This document shows, in pieces, positions 46,075-52,414 of a stretch of DNA of 64,000 nt. This DNA is from Candidatus Omnitrophota bacterium. GTDB lineage: Bacteria > Omnitrophota > Gorgyraeia > 2-01-FULL-45-10. Position 1 is the first letter of the stretch, and each line of letters starts with the position of its first letter. Location of the stretch: the NCBI GenBank assembly GCA_028699255.1, contig JAQVUX010000005.1:35944-99943 (forward strand), read 5' to 3'. The notes under the pieces are model-generated. The model had not been told where the DNA came from. It saw only the letters and a program-made list of their open reading frames with translations, and ran no database searches. Made by a program: the position numbers and the translations under genes.

Positions 46075-49000
46075 TTACGCCGCGGACATCACGTTATCGC
46101 TTGCCATCTTATTAAACCGGCGTTTGTCATTATCCAATAATTTTGCGGTTGGCAGTTTGAATGGCACGCTTCGCACGAAATTATTGATATCGGCCTGGGA
46201 CTGCTCTTTCATGGATAACGGCCGGCGGGCAAGAAACTCAAATATTGCTTTTAGACGGCCAATATCATCCAGACGGCGAATTCTTAACGCAAGGATAATC
46301 CCCTCGGGTTGAACATCGTTTTGGCAAGGATCAAAGGCAAGCGCCCTTATACCAATGCCGCTATCCAGGACTTTGTTAACGATCTCCGTACTCGGACAAG
46401 CAACATCGAATTCCACCTCGTAACCCGGGTATTCTATCGCGTAATCAGCTCTCTTCCTATCGATCAATCTCTTCACCTCGTCCACAAAATCGGATGGGCC
46501 ACAAACCGGCAGTAAGGCAACCTTTTCGCCGCATTTCGCGTCCTTTTCCATCTCCTGCTGAAGCAGGGCCCTTAACATATCTCTTTGTATATAAGGAAAT
46601 ATTTCCTCCGCGGCTATATGGCACAGTATCGTTTTCGTTTTCCCGAGATCCTTTGGCCGATATTTTTTATTCTCTTCGTGTATCCGACCGGCCTCGGCAA
46701 CGGCAGAATCGGTTATAATAGCCGGTTGCCCGTTCGGCGTTCTGCGTACTGTGTTCTGGGTCATGCCCGCTTTGCCGCGCCCGGCCGCGGCTTCCGTTTC
46801 CCCTTGCCCCTGAACCTTTGACACTACCTGTCCCGCCTCCCTCTCCATGGGCAGGAGCCCATTTTCCGTCGGGGCGGCCTGTCTTACATGTACATGCGCC
46901 GGTGCATGCACATGTAGAAGAGCGTCATTATCATACGTCAATGGCTGATCCGACGGTTTTAAAGCGCCCGGCTTCTTCGGCTGTTTATAATAACGATTGC
47001 CATCTAAGGGCCCGCCATTCCCGAGCGGCCCGGGATCGGCGCCGGGGCCGTGGGGAAGATTAATATAACGGACACCGTCGAATTTACCGGAGGCGCGATC
47101 ATACATGGATATCGCGAAAGGGCGCTCGGAAAGTCGTATCATTCCCCCACTCCCTTCTTCATAAAATTGAACTACGAGATGCGCTTTTTCGGTCGTCAGA
47201 CACGCCCTGACACTGCCCGCCGGTCTTGCGGCACAAAAATTATCTCTTAACTCGATGGCCGCGAAAAGGATATGCGCCACCCCCGATAGTCCGACATCAT
47301 CGCCGGTATCTATAAACTGAATAGCGTCCGCACCGTCCATATACAGGGTGGCACTGCCGCATGGATATTCTATTTGGCGAAAATTTTTCTCAATCATCTC
47401 TGAAAGAATTTTCGCCAGTACTTCCCGCTCCCCGGGATTTCTGACCAAAGAATACGGTATATTTTCAAGTAAAGGCTGATTTCTTTCTTCCTCATTACTA
47501 TTATCAAGATAAAGGCTGAAAGTATACCCACCGGACTGATTCGTTTGTACAAAATGGGGATGCATTTTTTTAAATGTAACCCCGCCGGACAAGAGTAAAG
47601 GCGTTATGGTATCGATAAACTCATGGGTAGGCGCTCGCATATCTTCATCCAGAAGCGGCATATACATCAGAAATTTATACTGCGACTCTGCGCCGACGGC
47701 GTTGATATACGCAACCTGATAATCATAAGTTCCTCGCGCCACTACGTCCTGCCATCTCTCAGCCTTCTCTATCTTGTAGTCCAGATACTTTTCCTGTTCT
47801 AATACATCCAACACCATCATCTTGGCTAATACATACCTAAACTCATAGCTGTTCTTCTCCGAAAGTATAAATAAGTGCCTTATGCGCTGATGCAGATATT
47901 TGGCATTTAAAAAAGCTATTAGTTGCTCTAAGGCAATTTTAGTCTCATATTTCTGCCCAGGATCCATATCATAATTATATAAGTTGTCATGAGATTCTTT
48001 TAATAAACGATAAAAATCCGGTTCATATACTTGATCATTAATATCCGGATGAGAGACCTTCCGAAAGTGCTCATAGTTTTCCTCAAAAACTCCAACCATC
48101 CCGTCTTGATCATTTACAGGGATCGGCCTGATGAAATCCTCAAACTTTTTAAAGCAATCCGGAGGAAGCGCTTTCCTGAGAAAAGTAGTTTCTATCTTTC
48201 TTGGTTGAATAGGTATGTTGGAAGGGACGGATACGGCCGATGATAACGAATCTGTTAATCGAAGTATTATTTTAACAGCCCATCGGGAGTAGCTGGCAGG
48301 AAAAAATCGGCCCTGGAAAATTGTATCCGATATCCGGTAAGCCCGGGGATGATTATCGATCAACATCCGGCAGAATTTTTCACTTTCCAGTAAGCCTGAC
48401 ATGACGTCGTTTATTAGTACAAAAAATGCCATCGATACCACACTTAAAACGCCTCCTGCGGCGAAATCTAAAACCGGCGCTAACGCAAAAACCCCTGCCC
48501 TGCGTTCAAAATCGGACGGCCCCGTCCGCTCGCCGTATATTGCTTTCATCCTAACCGCGTAAGTATTACCGGAGGGATATTTGGGGTCAACTTCCTGACG
48601 AGAGGTTTCGTCCGCACGCCCGAACACTGACCGATCCGGCGACATTGAGTCGCCCTCAACCTCCGGCGGTCGTAAATATCGCCTGACGCCAGAGTTGCTC
48701 CCGGGGTCCGTCGGGCCGGGCAGGCCTTTAGGCATGTTGGCATAGGAAACCATTCGTGTATCGTCTGCCGAGTCACGCCTTTTGCGGAACCACAGCCCTT
48801 TGAGGCCGGGGAGATCCGTGGACTCGAGATTACGCCGGTCATCCGGAGTTTTAATTCCAAATTTTACCAACTCTTCGTGGGCAATATTTTCATAATCCTT
48901 TATAAAAAATAGATCAATCATCTTTCCGTCGTTCGCAAATTTAAAGGTAACGTATTTATAATCCTTCCCTGCCACCTTGCGGGATCGCCACGTTTCATCA

Positions 49001-49344
49001 ATAAACACGGATTGGTCGGGAAATAATTCGCTATTGAGGCGATTGATCGTTCTTCGAATAATCACATCGTCCGGAAGGTTCGGGGCCATAAATAATTTGC
49101 CCAGCGTATCGGCCGCCAAATTCAACTTCGCCCTGTATTTAAAATCTATTTCGTTTTTAATATCGAAAAGGGTGAAGCGGGATTGCGGGGCAAGTGTTGC
49201 CTGTTGCGGCGTTTGGACTTGCGGCGCCGCCCAGGATAGGTCGTTGAGCAGGAATAGGCAGACCAGGATTAGTGAGATTATTTTATATAGATTGCTTCGC
49301 CGCCACGCCTTAGGCGTATCGTCTCGCAATGACTTTTTATACAT
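46075..49344 (-). CDS. large orphan secreted or membrane-anchored protein (1089 aa) with no recognisable domain
   Basis: It has an N-terminal signal or anchor (IISLILVCLFLLNDLSWAAP) and a His-rich segment HVHAPAHVHV. No catalytic motif is identifiable by eye. Confidence 0.6.
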   Translation of the reverse strand: MYKKSLRDDTPKAWRRSNLYKIISLILVCLFLLNDLSWAAPQVQTPQQATLAPQSRFTLFDIKNEIDFKYRAKLNLAADTLGKLFMAPNLPDDVIIRRTINRLNSELFPDQSVFIDETWRSRKVAGKDYKYVTFKFANDGKMIDLFFIKDYENIAHEELVKFGIKTPDDRRNLESTDLPGLKGLWFRKRRDSADDTRMVSYANMPKGLPGPTDPGSNSGVRRYLRPPEVEGDSMSPDRSVFGRADETSRQEVDPKYPSGNTYAVRMKAIYGERTGPSDFERRAGVFALAPVLDFAAGGVLSVVSMAFFVLINDVMSGLLESEKFCRMLIDNHPRAYRISDTIFQGRFFPASYSRWAVKIILRLTDSLSSAVSVPSNIPIQPRKIETTFLRKALPPDCFKKFEDFIRPIPVNDQDGMVGVFEENYEHFRKVSHPDINDQVYEPDFYRLLKESHDNLYNYDMDPGQKYETKIALEQLIAFLNAKYLHQRIRHLFILSEKNSYEFRYVLAKMMVLDVLEQEKYLDYKIEKAERWQDVVARGTYDYQVAYINAVGAESQYKFLMYMPLLDEDMRAPTHEFIDTITPLLLSGGVTFKKMHPHFVQTNQSGGYTFSLYLDNSNEEERNQPLLENIPYSLVRNPGEREVLAKILSEMIEKNFRQIEYPCGSATLYMDGADAIQFIDTGDDVGLSGVAHILFAAIELRDNFCAARPAGSVRACLTTEKAHLVVQFYEEGSGGMIRLSERPFAISMYDRASGKFDGVRYINLPHGPGADPGPLGNGGPLDGNRYYKQPKKPGALKPSDQPLTYDNDALLHVHAPAHVHVRQAAPTENGLLPMEREAGQVVSKVQGQGETEAAAGRGKAGMTQNTVRRTPNGQPAIITDSAVAEAGRIHEENKKYRPKDLGKTKTILCHIAAEEIFPYIQRDMLRALLQQEMEKDAKCGEKVALLPVCGPSDFVDEVKRLIDRKRADYAIEYPGYEVEFDVACPSTEIVNKVLDSGIGIRALAFDPCQNDVQPEGIILALRIRRLDDIGRLKAIFEFLARRPLSMKEQSQADINNFVRSVPFKLPTAKLLDNDKRRFNKMASDNVMSAA

Positions 49345-49423
49345 AGCGAGAAGATTATAACATAGAATTATGTTAAAACAATATAAAGATAGCCATCTTT
49401 TTTCTACCTAACACTTTAACCCA

Positions 49424-49456
49424 TTCGACCTCCGAGGTGCGACCTCGGAGGTCGAA
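49424..49456. repeat. perfect 15-bp palindrome TTCGACCTCCGAGGT-gcg-ACCTCGGAGGTCGAA
   Basis: Seen directly in the sequence. A half-site copy (AGCGACCTCCGAGGTC) is also present at 52449-52466. Confidence 0.8.
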
Positions 49457-49467
49457 AATAACCATGT

Positions 49468-49506
49468 CAACCGCGTAGGTTACCGCGTAGGTTACCTACG
49501 CGGTTG
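49468..49506. repeat. REP cluster (two direct copies and one inverted copy) followed by a T7 run
   Basis: CAACCGCGTAGGTTA CCGCGTAGGTTA CCTACGCGGTTG ATTTTTTT, lying upstream of tRNA-Ala and the 1089-aa ORF. Confidence 0.8.
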
Positions 49507-49559
49507 ATTTTTTTAGTAGCTTGCTGGAGGAAGGTTGTGCTATACTATTTTTCCAAATT

Positions 49560-49633
49560 GGGGCTGTAGTGAAGAGGGATCACGACACAATGGCATTGTG
49601 TAGTCACGAGTTCGATTCTCGTCAGCTCCACCA
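49560..49633 (+). tRNA. tRNA-Ala (anticodon GGC) with the G3:U70 identity pair
   Basis: GGGGCTGTAGTGAAGAGGGATCACGACACAATGGCATTGTGTAGTCACGAGTTCGATTCTCGTCAGCTCCACCA folds as a cloverleaf. It has a 7-bp acceptor stem with G3:U70, a 4-nt variable loop and an encoded CCA. Confidence 0.75.
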
Positions 49634-49635
49634 TA

Positions 49636-49850
49636 CTCTGAAAACTTTTCGAAGAAAGTTTTCAGGTCCTGCAGTTTCAGATACTTCTATTTTTCCTGAA
49701 ATTTTCGGAGAAAATTTCGAGAAAAATAGAAGGACTCAGGAAACAATACGAAGGAAATTTTAGGGGCCTGGGGTTTGACAAGTTTCTATTTTGCTCCGCA
49801 AAATAGAAGAACTCGAGAAACTTTTCGAAGAAAATCCTCATTCCGCAAGA
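49636..49850. repeat. array of 2-3 units of the tRNA-proximal structured repeat, 3' of tRNA-Ala (opposite orientation on +)
   Basis: GAAAACTTTTCGAAGAAAGTTTTC-AGGTCCTGCAGTTTCAGATA-hairpin, then GGGGCCTGGGGTTTGACAAG-hairpin. These units mirror units 1 and 3 of the array next to tRNA-Leu. Confidence 0.75.
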
Positions 49851-50404
49851 TGCAAGTCTACGTATGACGCCAATAACTCCCTTATCTTTTCCGGAGGTAT
49901 AACATTGAAATAGTGGTCGACTATCGCGTGGGCCATCTCATGCGCTATGATCGAATCGGATATGTCCTCTTCTGAAATATATATAGTGTTGAACTTGTGC
50001 ACATAAAATGATTTTATACCGCTTTTATATTCTTCGACCGGCGCGGGGGTTCCGAATATCTTAACGTATTCGGCCTCCACATCCGCTCGGGCGGTAAATA
50101 TCATTATCTTCACATGAACATTGGCGGGATACATATCGAGAAGCTCTTCGGCGCGCCTGAATAGAGCGTCAAGCTGATAGCGCACCTTCTCTTCGACGGG
50201 AGCATCCTCGCCGGGCATCTCGCTCGTAAAATATGTCGCGCGTTTCCGCAGATTGGATTCGACCGCGTCCAGGTCTGCCCCCGGCATATAGCAAATGGTG
50301 AGATAGCCGGTCTCGAGAATGATCCATTCCTGCCCGGCCGCAAAAACGGGAGCGGCTATTGTGAGGATTATGAGTAATGCCGATATCGCGGCGCGGCGGA
50401 TCAT
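49838..50404 (-). CDS. secreted protein with an HExxH (HEMAH) putative zinc-metallopeptidase motif
   Basis: 188 aa with a signal peptide (ALLIILTIAAPVFAAGQ) and HEMAHAIVDH. It overlaps the upstream HAMP gene. Confidence 0.55.
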   Translation of the reverse strand: MIRRAAISALLIILTIAAPVFAAGQEWIILETGYLTICYMPGADLDAVESNLRKRATYFTSEMPGEDAPVEEKVRYQLDALFRRAEELLDMYPANVHVKIMIFTARADVEAEYVKIFGTPAPVEEYKSGIKSFYVHKFNTIYISEEDISDSIIAHEMAHAIVDHYFNVIPPEKIRELLASYVDLHLAE

Positions 50405-50405
50405 C

Positions 50406-50948
50406 CTATGTCCTGAACTTATCCAAGCCGGACTTCAGCGCCTTTATCTTCTGCTTAACTTCGCCCGGCAGATCGTTCGCCGCCGGTAATGCTTCAAGTT
50501 CCGCGGCTGTTTTTTTAAGCGCGCTTATTTCGTTCTTCAAAAACCGCACCATTGCGTTCAAGCCTTCCGCGATAGGCCTTATTTCGTCCCCTTCCCGGAG
50601 ATTGAACTCTCTGCGAAGGTTGCCGGAAGCGACGTCTTCGATGTCTTTCTCGATCCTGTAAAGCGGCCCGGCTATCTTGTGTGAAGTGAATAGCGTGATG
50701 AATATCGTGGCTATGCCCGTCGCTATTATCACCACCGCGCTCGATAATAATACAGCGGGAAGTATGTAATCGGCGGTGCTTTTAATGCCGAGGCGCAGGT
50801 TCTCGAATGATGTTGTTACTGTAGCCCTGGATAAAAGATAGATCGTAACACCCGATATGGCCGACCCGGCCAACACGATAGCACAGAATTTCAATATAAA
50901 ATTCCGCTGGAACTCTTTCTTTATATAATAATTTTTTCGCCTGTTCAT
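50406..50948 (-). CDS. two-TM membrane protein with a cytoplasmic HAMP domain and no output domain
   Basis: The start at MNRRKNYY lies immediately after the stop of the upstream lipoprotein gene. Two TM helices are followed by a HAMP-like amphipathic segment (AGPLYRIEKDIEDVASGNL...). Confidence 0.55.
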   Translation of the reverse strand: MNRRKNYYIKKEFQRNFILKFCAIVLAGSAISGVTIYLLSRATVTTSFENLRLGIKSTADYILPAVLLSSAVVIIATGIATIFITLFTSHKIAGPLYRIEKDIEDVASGNLRREFNLREGDEIRPIAEGLNAMVRFLKNEISALKKTAAELEALPAANDLPGEVKQKIKALKSGLDKFRT

Positions 50949-51430
50949 TTCAGGTTCTCCCTGTATATCCGGACCTTTGCCGAAGCGCGCAAGCCCGATA
51001 CCCATTTCGTAAGCTCGTCCTGAAGCATCTTTTGCCTGTCTTCAACGCTCAGATCGGCTGGAAGTTTTTTCGAGAAGTCGTCGATCTTTTTATTTATCAA
51101 AAGTTTCAAAAGCGCCTGCTCCCAATACCGCTCGATCTCCTTCATGAACTTTTGGTCTTTGTCGAAAGATTCTCTCTGCGCTTCCTGAAGCAGTATCTTC
51201 TTGGTTATGAGTTTGTCGAGCGCGTCCTCCTTCGCCTTAACGGCATCCGATGCGGCAAGCTTATCCGGTAGCATAAACCGCGCCTCTTCCTGAAAATCAT
51301 TTAAAGTCAGATCGTAATCATTTATCCTGACGATAACCCGGCTCTTATCGGCGTCGCATTTCTCTGTCCTGCCGCAACAGCCGGACATAAATAAAGCCGC
51401 GATAATCACGGCCAAAATAAAATGCTTCAT
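50945..51430 (-). CDS. lipoprotein with a SurA-N-like chaperone domain
   Basis: 161 aa with a lipobox FMSGCC and a helical PpiC/SurA N-terminal-like region. Confidence 0.5.
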   Translation of the reverse strand: MKHFILAVIIAALFMSGCCGRTEKCDADKSRVIVRINDYDLTLNDFQEEARFMLPDKLAASDAVKAKEDALDKLITKKILLQEAQRESFDKDQKFMKEIERYWEQALLKLLINKKIDDFSKKLPADLSVEDRQKMLQDELTKWVSGLRASAKVRIYRENLK

Positions 51431-51445
51431 GAAAGCCCCCTTTTG

Positions 51446-52414
51446 CTATTCCTTATACACACCGATCGCGCGGATCTTGTTATAGCGCATCTCTATAAGT
51501 TTATTCTTATCTATCGCTTTGAGCGCGGCGATATCTTTTTTGATTATCTTTTTGATATTATCGGCCACTTCCTGCGGATTCCTGTGCGCCCCGCCCAGCG
51601 GCTCTTTGACTATACCGTCGATTATCTTCATCTCGAGGAGGTCTTTACCCGTCAACTTGAGCGCCGCGGCCGCATCCGGAGACTTCGAGCGCTCTTTCCA
51701 CAATATCGCGGCGCACCCTTCCGGTGATATGACGGAATAATACGCGTTCTCGAGCACATACACCCTGTCTCCAATGCCGATACCGAGCGCGCCGCCCGAG
51801 CCGCCCTCACCTATCACGAATACGAGTATCGCGGTCTTGAGGTCGGCCATCTCGCGCAAATTATACGCGATCGCCTCGGCCTGCCCTCTCTCCTCAGCGC
51901 CTATCCCGGGGTATGCGCCGGGCGTATCTATGAGCGCTATTACCGGCAGATTGAACTTCTCCGCCATCTTCATGACCCTCATCGCCTTGCGATAGCCTTC
52001 CGGATGGGCGCTACCGAAACTTCTCTCGAGGTTCTCTTTGGTGTCTCTGCCCTTCTGGTGGCCGATAACTACCACCCGCTCGCCGTTCAGTTTCGCGAAG
52101 CCGCATATGAGAGCCTTGTCGTCGGCAAAATGACGGTCACCGTGTATCTCGATAAAATCGGTCATCATCATCTCAATGTAATCGAGCGTGTACGGGCGCT
52201 TCGGATGACGCGCAAGCTGGACCCTCTGCCAGGGCGTCAGGTTGTCGTAAACGTCCTTCTTTATATGGGCGAGCTTCTCTTCGAGCCGCACGATCTCCCC
52301 GGATATGTCGATATCCCTGCCGGATGTGAAGCTCTTCAGCTCCTCGATCTTGCGCTCCAGCTCCATTATGGGACGTTCGAAATCAAGGCCGGATATATGT
52401 GTATGTGTAGCCAT
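51446..52414 (-). CDS. accA: acetyl-CoA carboxylase carboxyltransferase alpha subunit
   Basis: 322 aa with characteristic AccA motifs ([11 protein letters not shown]..., [13 protein letters not shown]). Confidence 0.9.

Follow-up and report, generated by a model that had tools for sequence, protein, structure and literature searches.

Background

HAMP domains are, to our knowledge, described almost entirely as relays from a sensor outside the cell to an enzyme inside it, and the reverse direction has been studied mainly in LapD. The transducer of sensory rhodopsin II, HtrII, exchanges signals laterally through contacts between its transmembrane (TM) helices and those of a partner membrane protein. 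In Pseudomonas fluorescens LapD controls, via its HAMP domain, the periplasmic protease LapG, which trims the giant adhesin LapA; LapD combines a PAS-like periplasmic output domain with a cytoplasmic GGDEF-EAL part, and LapG is a cysteine protease of the transglutaminase fold (PMC4359373). A TM protein carrying a HAMP domain with neither input nor output domain is Af1503 of Archaeoglobus fulgidus (PMC3585426).

We analyzed a 64-kb stretch of DNA from an Omnitrophota genome, called the window hereafter, in which a gene for a two-TM HAMP protein stands between genes for a lipoprotein and an exported protein with an HExxH motif. These three genes are probably one undescribed cell-envelope unit, present in many uncultured bacteria and likely to trim or check exported proteins.

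Results

Gene layout of the window locus

The triad and its immediate neighbours are arranged as follows:

51446..52414, minus strand: accA, upstream neighbour (Pfam ACCA, E 4e-148)
50945-51430, minus strand: g1, lipoprotein gene (161 aa)
50406-50948, minus strand: g2, TM-HAMP gene (180 aa plus stop)
49838-50404, minus strand: g3, HExxH gene (188 aa plus stop)
49560-49633, plus strand: convergent tRNA-Ala gene (ARAGORN)

All three ORFs of the initial annotation are present on the minus strand at the coordinates that it gave, as is the distance of 15 nt between the accA stop codon (51446-51448) and the g1 ATG. The stop codon of g1 and the start codon of g2 overlap as ATGA (50948-50945), and the stop codon of g2 (TAG, 50408-50406) is followed after one base by the g3 ATG at 50404; for these junctions the initial annotation had the right coordinates but exchanged the two in its text. 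Read mechanically, the g2 ORF reaches an ATG at 51005 (199 aa), a start used by one gene caller (P0001); the family alignment supports a start at 50948. The convergent tRNA-Ala gene downstream shows that the transcription unit ends at g3. At the other end, accA is probably co-transcribed with the triad in the window, yet lies outside the conserved module.

The window triad sits alone between accA and leuS. A scan of positions 49000-52000 against Rfam gave only a tRNA-like signal, resolved by ARAGORN as the tRNA-Ala gene, and terminator and promoter scans gave counts not above those of shuffled controls. No paralogs of the triad, exopolysaccharide (EPS) genes or two-partner-secretion (TPS) genes were found elsewhere in the 64-kb window. 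A role in anti-phage defence was also considered and rejected, PADLOC giving no match for g1, g2, g3 or a 1089-aa neighbour.

Conservation of the triad across genomes

The distribution of the three genes was analyzed in 80 species-representative genomes, mostly Omnitrophota. In 75 of them the lipoprotein, HAMP and HExxH genes follow one another in a single order and on a single strand; contig ends truncate two of the five exceptions. HAMP relatives lacking the HExxH gene occur in three loci (L067, L070 and L079), and the chaperone-like lipoprotein gene is present in 76 of the 80. The adjacency of the triad is far beyond chance. The HAMP-to-HExxH junction measures at most 37 nt in 67 of the 72 unfused loci, 23 of these 67 being overlaps, with lengths that rest on heuristic start calls. 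A reciprocal check was made from the HExxH side on metagenome loci: a HAMP gene lies directly upstream in 24 cases and not in 5, 4 more loci show part of a HAMP gene at the contig edge, and in one locus the order is permuted. HExxH members without an adjoining HAMP gene comprise the 5 cases with adequate upstream sequence and 3 distant members on short contigs, where no HAMP fragment was found in the 100-296 nt present upstream. Of the two outcomes that the initial annotation took as refuting its proposal, the first, a lack of co-occurrence in other genomes, is contradicted from both sides. Our search of the literature on the triad, on CHASE2/FecR/TPS links and on output-less HAMP proteins retrieved no paper describing the module, and no database family describing a chaperone-HAMP-HExxH module was found.

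In five genomes (L018, L020, L021, L023 and L026) the HAMP and HExxH parts form one polypeptide. The five fused ORFs are intact, 388-389 aa long and 55-80% identical to each other. They contain three hydrophobic segments, the third of which is a TM segment joining the HAMP and HExxH parts; the C-terminal helix-loop-helix of g2 is replaced by a longer helical linker into this segment. A sixth fusion is the metagenome protein P0378 (395 aa), ahead of which the lipoprotein gene lies with a 4-nt overlap, and in all fused loci the lipoprotein gene still opens the module. These natural fusions are independent evidence of a functional link. Together with the conservation of the triad, they support the view, already put forward in the initial annotation, of an uncharacterised envelope signalling or proteolysis unit.

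Domain and fold assignments

To g1 we assigned one feature by reading the sequence:

51377..51388, minus strand: lipobox M15-S16-G17-C18 of g1, end of the signal peptide

Across the family (alignment A3) G17 and C18 hardly vary, and the signal peptide with its lipobox Cys places g1 among bacterial lipoproteins, with lipidation predicted. In Pfam, g1 scores 25.9 bits with SurA_N_3 (cut-off 27.2) and 22.9 bits with SurA_N_2, both slightly below the gathering cut-offs. Many of its 199 homologs have precomputed PF13624 and PF13623 assignments, and the PF13145 parvulin domain is carried only by longer homologs (254-281 aa). The family profile A3 matches HP0175 of H. pylori (E 1.8e-7) over the N-terminal arm (residues 34-177) and the C-terminal helix (259-299), jumping over the parvulin domain (178-258), and it matches Cbf2/PEB4 at E 6e-4. 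The N-terminal helical chaperone domain of the SurA/PpiD/PrsA/PEB4 superfamily is recognizable in g1, and a parvulin-type PPIase domain was not found in the 161 aa of the window protein; g1 is thus predicted to be a chaperone domain of this type that does without its PPIase. Membership of the EpsD family of PPIases (TIGR02925) was rejected: g1 reaches 25.2 bits, and a long homolog from L008 26.9 bits, against a curated cut-off of 108.9.

The features of g2 are, from the N-terminus:

50832..50900, minus strand: TM1, about residues 17-39 (hydropathy; AF2 helix 11-41; conservation 0.77-0.79)
50766..50831, minus strand: short periplasmic loop, about residues 40-61, predicted beta-hairpin (AF2 strands 44-49 and 52-57)
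50688..50765, minus strand: TM2, about residues 62-87 (hydropathy; AF2 continuous helix 59-107)
50547..50687, minus strand: HAMP domain, residues 88-134 (Pfam PF00672)
50409..50546, minus strand: C-terminal helix-loop-helix, residues 135-180, least conserved region

A conserved basic N-tail, NRRKNYYIKKEFQRNF, precedes TM1. The HAMP domain passes PF00672 with 26.8 bits (gathering cut-off 25) directly after TM2, and its helices AS1 and AS2 are both helical in the AF2 monomer prediction. Within the family alignment S89, H90, I92-Y97 (IAGPLY), D121 and E122 are invariant; the HAMP signature calls for a Pro at the beginning of AS1, a Gly in the connector and an acidic DE pair at the beginning of AS2, and in 27 sequences G94, P95, D121 and E122 are invariant and G109 is nearly so. 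Conservation ranges from 0.76 to 0.87 over the N-tail, the TM helices, the periplasmic hairpin and AS1, and from 0.48 to 0.56 over AS2 and the C-terminus. The most conserved segment is AS1 (0.87), and the periplasmic loop, with T45, T46, F48 and L53 invariant, has a mean of 0.82. Such a pattern fits specific contacts in the membrane and the periplasm. With the g2 profile (A1), matches were obtained to the HAMP regions of PcaY, Tsr, HtrII and Af1503.

Pfam and NCBIfam scans of g2 revealed no output domain, be it a kinase, MCP, GGDEF or another. The protein has no recognizable cytoplasmic sensor, its post-HAMP part being of about 45 residues. An MCP was rejected (no PF00015 match, and the protein ends 46 residues past the HAMP domain), NCBIfam MCP models aligning only to the TM2-HAMP stretch and far below their cut-offs. 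A sensor histidine kinase was rejected likewise, in view of the lack of HisKA/DHp and HATPase_c matches in Pfam; NCBIfam kinase models align only to the HAMP region. A remnant of a longer sensor, the second outcome named as refuting in the initial annotation, is ruled out by the length of the family: among 363 homologs, the 120 matches listed all measure 169-199 aa, and the 116 of these with at least 95% query coverage span 177-199 aa. The initial annotation had held that a HAMP protein without output is unusual; the absence of an output domain stands, but Af1503 is a precedent for it (PMC3585426). In public records, homologs of g2 are found under the name 'methyl-accepting chemotaxis protein'.

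For g3 the following features were considered:

50339..50404, minus strand: signal peptide, residues 1-22, counterpart of TM3 in the fused proteins (sequence, hydropathy, fusion sequences)
49928..49942, minus strand: HEMAH zinc-binding/catalytic motif, residues 155-159 (H155, E156, H159), invariant in alignment A2
49877..49879, minus strand: E176, candidate third zinc ligand, invariant in alignment A2

The N-terminal signal peptide, MIRRAAISALLIILTIAAPVFA, is followed by AGQ, with probable cleavage after VFA. A Pro and small residues ahead of the predicted site make it cleavable-looking, so release of g3 from the membrane, instead of tethering to it, is possible. The HExxH motif lies inside a predicted helix (150-165), and E176 lies 17 residues past H159, within a second one (172-184); D183 and H185 are also invariant in A2. 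The zincin fold of gluzincins (clan MA(E)), i.e. an N-terminal mixed sheet, helices and an active-site helix, is found in the g3 model. Among its ten best fold matches, eight are bona fide gluzincin peptidases and two belong to the YbeY family; because of the gluzincin matches, E176 is a putative zinc ligand. No significant match to a curated peptidase family was obtained by sequence in Pfam, NCBIfam or PDB: Pfam came closest with SprT-like (E 0.024) and NCBIfam with flagellinolysin (E 0.0026, motif only), and the family profile gave nothing meaningful against PDB sequences. We infer that g3 is a Sec-exported minimal gluzincin-like metallopeptidase, its activity being putative. It represents a new zincin family of 761 clusters at 50% identity that has no Pfam or NCBIfam model. 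The labels first given to the three proteins (SurA-N-like lipoprotein, TM-HAMP protein without output, exported HExxH protein) have thus held, a zincin fold being added to the third.

Genomic contexts of the triad

We examined the genes adjoining the triad in the 80 loci. The possible operon partner put forward in the initial annotation, accA, is not a conserved one: it adjoins the triad only in L001 and L002, the two closest relatives. As accA and an L,D-transpeptidase gene are found beside the triad only in these two loci, accA was rejected as a member of the unit. The informative neighbours in relatives are EPS-export and two-partner-secretion genes. In 16-20 of the 80 loci the triad lies within Wzy/Wza/Wzc-type EPS loci, whose priming transferase scores above the TIGR03025 cut-off and whose export protein does so for TIGR03027. 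In about 21 of the 80 it comes directly after giant TPS-domain proteins (TpsA), and some of these loci also contain a ShlB-type TpsB gene. Most loci, that of the window included, have no obvious client locus adjoining, which makes the assignment of a client weak.

In L081 the triad is inside an EPS locus, with AP_endonuc_2 and leuS after it; the triad with AP_endonuc_2-leuS is retained in L001, in L002 and in the window, all three without EPS genes. The copy in the window is a member of the EPS-associated clade but no longer has EPS neighbours. Two further types of neighbours were observed in a minority of loci. FecR-domain proteins come directly after the triad in several EPS-context loci (cluster 13), and CHASE2 genes flank it as CHASE2-SpoIIE genes in L046 and L058 and as a CHASE2-cyclase gene in L057. 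Neither a sigma factor nor a response regulator nor a site-2 protease is a conserved neighbour of the triad.

Discussion

The reading that we favour, tentatively and a little short of calling it probable, is an autonomous chaperone and protease unit facing the periplasm, with a HAMP adaptor as its anchor and possibly its gate. The lipoprotein g1 would be a periplasmic holdase with a lipid anchor, of the PrsA/PpiD/PEB4 type but after loss of the parvulin domain, and would hand unfolded exported clients to g3. The HAMP protein g2 would be built in the inner membrane from its basic N-tail, TM1, periplasmic beta-hairpin, TM2, canonical HAMP domain and short helix-loop-helix. The third protein, g3, would act as a Sec-exported minimal HExxH...E zinc peptidase on the periplasmic face of the inner membrane, physically bound to g2; in one clade the two form a single chain through the third TM helix. 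In this way g2 would anchor g3, and may gate it across the membrane according to the state of the membrane or the cytoplasm. Likely clients in relatives would be giant TpsA exoproteins or components of Wzy/Wza/Wzc EPS export.

A bolder form of this proposal is somewhat unlikely in our judgement: the HAMP domain would send a conformational signal outward, its output being an extracytoplasmic zinc peptidase, and together with the parvulin-less g1 it would form a dedicated, gated station that processes or checks giant TPS exoproteins and polysaccharide-export components, i.e. an undescribed type of system. In the fused proteins this outward coupling would run along the third TM helix; in the split ones it would depend on contacts of the TM segments or of the periplasmic hairpin.

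The HAMP domain of g2 may on the other hand be only a dimerising scaffold. Chaperone and protease would then be held by a constitutive anchor, a dimeric tether that does no signalling, and the peptidase would be ungated. The lack of input and output domains, the short and poorly conserved post-HAMP region and the fusion proteins all agree with simple tethering, and the TM-HAMP protein Af1503 has been described as non-signalling (PMC3585426). A plain tether has no need for a switchable four-helix bundle, whereas the signature residues of the HAMP domain show no or almost no variation in the family, conservation peaks in AS1 (0.87), and in LapD it is the HAMP domain that dominates control of the periplasmic protease (PMC4359373). 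We consider an ungated anchor unlikely.

The FecR-domain and CHASE2 neighbours suggest another role for the protease. As a site-1-type protease acting on g2 or on a neighbouring FecR-domain or CHASE2 sensor, g3 would switch the expression of a surface polymer or adhesin, and the triad would belong to a signalling cascade, not to quality control; pairs of FecR and CHASE2 proteins have been tied to biofilm regulation (PMC5192318). These neighbours are present in a minority of loci and absent from the window, a conserved sigma factor, response regulator or site-2 protease is missing beside the triad, and the chaperone-like lipoprotein, though present in 76 of the 80 loci, would have no obvious role. 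Regulated proteolysis of this kind appears distinctly improbable.

It is more doubtful still that g3 is not a protease at all and that its zincin-like site serves another purpose, for instance hydrolysis related to glycans or peptidoglycan, or binding that depends on the metal, the triad being accessory to EPS export and g1 standing in the place that EpsD has. The gluzincin peptidases among the fold matches (8 of the best 10) and the invariant HExxH...E argue against it; the triad is equally common beside TPS genes and in EPS-free contexts such as the window, and the score of g1 with the EpsD model (25 bits) is far from the cut-off of 108.9. Finally, the small size of the genes and the chemoreceptor names of g2 homologs could evoke three unrelated genes or a sensor remnant, which we regard as hardly credible given the triad in 75 of 80 genomes over several contexts, the natural fusions, the lack of MCP signalling or kinase domains in g2 and that of any longer form among the 120 listed HAMP homologs (169-199 aa).

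If the favoured chaperone and protease unit is real, a compact module in which a TM-HAMP protein with nothing further is paired with, and in one clade fused to, an exported zinc peptidase would be a second, much simpler case of HAMP-linked control of periplasmic proteolysis, and output-less HAMP proteins mislabelled as chemoreceptors in public records would gain a testable role. It would also mark a conserved envelope function in Omnitrophota, a phylum for which we know of no cultured representatives, where it goes together with giant proteins resembling adhesins and with EPS export, traits relevant to attachment and a host-associated lifestyle. Should the HAMP domain indeed signal outward, a new type of system would be widespread in this uncultured phylum.

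Comparison with known systems

Several described proteins resemble single members of the triad. PrsA of Bacillus, PEB4 of Campylobacter and HP0175 of Helicobacter have N- and C-terminal helical chaperone arms like those of g1, PpiD-like proteins have the same SurA_N_2 and SurA_N_3 signatures, and PrsA is lipid-anchored, as predicted for g1. Compared with these proteins and SurA, g1 is far shorter (161 aa), has no PPIase domain and is paired with HAMP and HExxH genes. EpsD (TIGR02925) of XrtA/PEP-CTERM loci is a likeness of position: epsD lies upstream of the polysaccharide export gene in canonical loci, and in EPS-context relatives g1 lies upstream of the export gene that passes TIGR03027. Unlike EpsD, the window g1 has no PPIase domain and the g1 matches to the model are weak (25-27 bits, cut-off 108.9); we know of no description of EpsD loci that includes HAMP and HExxH partners. 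On the side of the protease, quality control in the envelope by chaperone and protease is exemplified by DegP and by BepA, an M48 zinc protease working with SurA and BAM. Unlike BepA, g3 is neither an M48 protein nor a carrier of a TPR domain; BepA is without a coupled HAMP protein, and the genes of the BepA and DegP systems are dispersed, with no fixed three-gene cassette.

Closer to g2 stand Af1503 and HtrII. Af1503 consists, like g2, of TM helices and a canonical HAMP domain with little more, and profile A1 matches its HAMP domain, weakly (E 0.002-0.05) and in that domain only; we know of no conserved protease or chaperone partners of Af1503. HtrII has two TM helices, a HAMP domain and a negligible periplasmic domain, and A1 matches its TM2-HAMP part at E 3.5e-5. 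By analogy, HtrII might be a model for the coupling of g2 to the TM or signal segment of g3. HtrII differs by its long MCP signalling domain that controls CheA, whereas g2 ends about 45 residues past the HAMP domain.

LapD and LapG resemble the triad as a system. In both cases the gene of a periplasmic protease, predicted in the case of g3, is coupled to that of an inner-membrane protein with two TM helices and a juxtamembrane HAMP domain, there is a tie to giant secreted surface proteins (TpsA ahead of about 21 of the 80 triads), and the small conserved periplasmic element of g2 could be a docking site. The differences lie in the parts: the periplasmic hairpin and the tail of g2 comprise only about 20 and about 45 residues, and g2 has none of the c-di-GMP receptor domain of LapD; LapG is a calcium-dependent cysteine protease and g3 a zincin; LapA is a substrate of type I secretion, not of TPS; and the Lap system has no chaperone lipoprotein. 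Neither g2 nor g3 belongs to the LapD or LapG families, and what the resemblance suggests, by analogy, is a possible mode of working.

Gene layout in the window

The triad is composed of three minus-strand genes, which encode a SurA-N-like lipoprotein (g1), a TM-HAMP protein (g2) and an exported HExxH zincin-like protein (g3). The ORFs found match exactly the coordinates proposed for all three in the initial annotation. The features of the region are the following:

46075-49344, minus strand: 1089-aa ORF with an N-terminal TM segment
49424-49456: palindrome with perfect 15-nt arms
49467-49507: palindrome with 18-nt arms, including the tandem 12-mer ACCGCGTAGGTT
49560-49633, plus strand: tRNA-Ala(GGC) gene (ARAGORN), convergent with g3
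49838-50404, minus strand: g3, 188 aa (start at 50404, end at 49838)
50406-50948, minus strand: g2, 180 aa (ATG at 50948, end at 50406)
50945-51430, minus strand: g1, 161 aa

The accA stop and the g1 start are separated by 15 nt. The g1 stop and the g2 ATG overlap as ATGA, and g3 starts one base past the g2 TAG: the initial annotation had the junction coordinates right and swapped the overlapping junction in its text, g1 and g2 being the pair that overlaps. An alternative g2 frame from an ATG at 51005 (50406-51005, minus strand, 199 aa, 61 nt overlap with g1) is used by at least one public gene call (database protein P0001); homolog N-termini support ATG 50948 as the probable start. The transcription unit ends after g3, at the convergent tRNA-Ala(GGC) gene. 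Rfam gave a partial tmRNA-like match to this tRNA region, below the gathering score; this identity was rejected, ARAGORN calling a tRNA instead. The spacer from the tRNA to g3 (49634-49837) contains a pair of ~59-nt direct repeats that lie 99 nt apart and share 71% identity, with hairpins in each (23-nt arms at 49684-49732; 11-nt arms at 49784-49808 and 49638-49665). Bidirectional terminators are one possible explanation, a repeat element another. The two palindromes listed are strong, and the stretch that holds them (49417-49507) is upstream of both the tRNA and the 1089-aa gene.

Conservation of the triad and HAMP-HExxH fusions

Scanning one genome per species (GTDB representatives) for the HAMP family gave at least 455 loci with relatives; the best 80 were kept, and the three family HMMs were run on every ORF of these. 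In 75 of the 80, the three genes lie on one strand in the order lipoprotein, HAMP, HExxH; of the five that deviate, two are cut by contig ends. According to heuristic start calls, unfused HAMP-to-HExxH junctions are at most 37 nt long in 67/72 cases, 23 of the 67 being overlaps. HAMP and HExxH form a single ORF of 388-389 aa in five genomes (loci L018, L020, L021, L023 and L026); these ORFs are intact and share 55-80% identity. An independent metagenome supplied a sixth fusion, P0378, likewise with the lipoprotein gene in front of it. The fusion ORFs present a third hydrophobic segment at the position of the g3 signal peptide, a topology that points to a periplasmic zincin domain and argues that the HAMP and HExxH proteins act together. 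The reciprocal test took HExxH family members on metagenome contigs as its starting point: HAMP was directly upstream of HExxH in 24 loci and not in 5, four further loci retain part of a HAMP gene at the edge of the contig, and one is permuted. The coupling is strong, not absolute.

Triad carriers are mostly labelled Omnitrophota, and some MAGs are recorded as Desulfobacterota, Nitrospinota or 'Deltaproteobacteria'. Several variants were observed: two complete triads in tandem (L011:2819-6648); a complete triad, then a second lipoprotein-HAMP pair with which no HExxH gene was detected (L055:3319-6400); two unlinked triads in MAG STD1_87 (L001, which has accA upstream, and L050, which follows the gene of a giant protein); a smpB-like gene after the HAMP gene, a triad exception (L067:7938-9010); and the permuted order lipoprotein, HExxH, HAMP (L114:3-1425). 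L070 (1376-3487, Nitrospirae by its label) has a 301-aa ORF with a CxxCH motif between two HAMP paralogs, and neither lipoprotein nor HExxH gene.

Proteins and proposed function

The g1 signal peptide terminates in the lipobox M-S-G-C, and its SurA_N_3 and SurA_N_2 scores are just below the Pfam cut-offs. Many of its 199 homologs carry these domains in precomputed annotation, and a few longer ones (254-281 aa) also the parvulin domain PF13145. In H. pylori HP0175 the g1 family profile aligned with the chaperone arm at the N-terminus and with the C-terminal helix (E 1.8e-7); C. jejuni Cbf2/PEB4 was matched as well, and in both the parvulin domain was skipped. On this evidence, g1 is probably a lipid-anchored holdase of PrsA/PpiD/PEB4 type which has lost its PPIase domain.

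HAMP is the only domain found in g2 by Pfam (26.8, cut-off 25) and other curated-model searches. Hydropathy and an AF2 model (pLDDT 76) give, from N to C: a basic N-tail, TM1, a periplasmic beta-hairpin (~20 residues), TM2 continuous into HAMP AS1, AS2 and a short helix-loop-helix. The most conserved parts (0.76-0.87) are the N-tail, TM1, hairpin, TM2 and AS1; AS2 and the C-terminal tail score lowest (0.48-0.56). Matches to the family profile were obtained in the TM2-HAMP stretch of chemoreceptors, HtrII and Af1503. The name of the family in public records, 'methyl-accepting chemotaxis protein', is unjustified since the MCP signalling domain is absent. Among 363 homologs, all 120 listed measure 169-199 aa, so a truncated sensor is ruled out. 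No curated family covers g3 or the g2 architecture.

The best-supported reading, which we hold tentatively and at slightly less than even chances, is that the triad is a periplasm-facing chaperone-plus-peptidase unit. Exported unfolded clients would be held by g1 and cut by g3, a putative peptidase, which would be anchored at the inner membrane by g2 and may be gated by its HAMP domain. A g2-g3 association is suggested by the strongly conserved membrane and hairpin parts of g2 and by the fusions, in which a third TM helix joins the two. That g2 is a scaffold without signalling role is unlikely, being about half as probable.

Genomic context in relatives

The triad lies within an exopolysaccharide (EPS) locus in 16-20 of the 80 loci, in the order: Wzy_C-like gene, priming transferase (passes TIGR03025), triad, FecR-domain or small unknown protein, BBP2_2 beta-barrel, Poly_export/SLBB exporter (passes TIGR03027, XrtA/PEP-CTERM type) and Wzz-GNVR tyrosine kinase. 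In ~21/80 loci it directly follows, on the same strand, a giant TPS-domain TpsA gene of two-partner secretion (TPS), several of these loci also having a ShlB/FhaC-type TpsB gene. CHASE2 sensors adjoin a few triads, and many have unrelated housekeeping neighbours. CHASE2-SpoIIE phosphatase genes are directly upstream in L046 (2181-4301) and L058 (5316-7382), and a CHASE2-guanylate cyclase gene directly downstream in L057 (7050-9293). A Burkholderia biofilm operon provides a known case of FecR-CHASE2 pairing (PMC5192318). A regulated-proteolysis signalling cascade with the FecR or CHASE2 neighbours appears improbable, and a non-protease EPS accessory role a little more so.

The accA gene, initially considered a possible member of the operon, is not part of the unit: no relatives other than the two closest, L001 and L002, have accA and an L,D-transpeptidase gene upstream of the triad. 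As a further correction to the initial annotation, it is the EPS and TPS loci that are informative about context. In L081 an EPS locus including the triad is followed by AP_endonuc_2 and leuS; L001 and L002 have the order purH...accA, triad, AP_endonuc_2, leuS, comEC, and the window has the same synteny except for the inserted tRNA-Ala and 1089-aa gene. By this synteny, the window triad belongs to the EPS-linked clade. It stayed in place when its EPS neighbours disappeared or were relocated, and this marks it as an autonomous cassette. The rest of the 64-kb window contains neither a second triad nor any EPS or TPS gene. The 1089-aa ORF has no Pfam or PADLOC match. This ORF and the tRNA-Ala look like a lineage-specific insertion because they are absent from the otherwise syntenic L001 and L002, where AP_endonuc_2 and leuS directly follow the HExxH gene.

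Comparison with known systems

The proposal of an envelope signalling or proteolysis unit is supported by the 75/80 triads, the HAMP-HExxH fusions and the g2 family length; coincidence or truncation is refuted and keeps a negligible probability. Literature searches found no paper describing the triad. Known superfamilies supply all its parts (SurA/PrsA chaperones, HAMP, zincins); the fixed three-gene combination and the HAMP-TM-zincin fusion are undescribed. We tentatively class the triad as HAMP-linked periplasmic proteolysis combined with quality control by an envelope chaperone and protease. Af1503 is a precedent for a TM-HAMP protein lacking both input and output domains (PMC3585426). None of the LapD/LapG defining domains is present in the triad, which is therefore not a member of that family. 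LapD/LapG, in which a membrane receptor with a HAMP domain regulates the periplasmic protease that trims a giant adhesin (PMC4359373), is nevertheless its closest working analogue.
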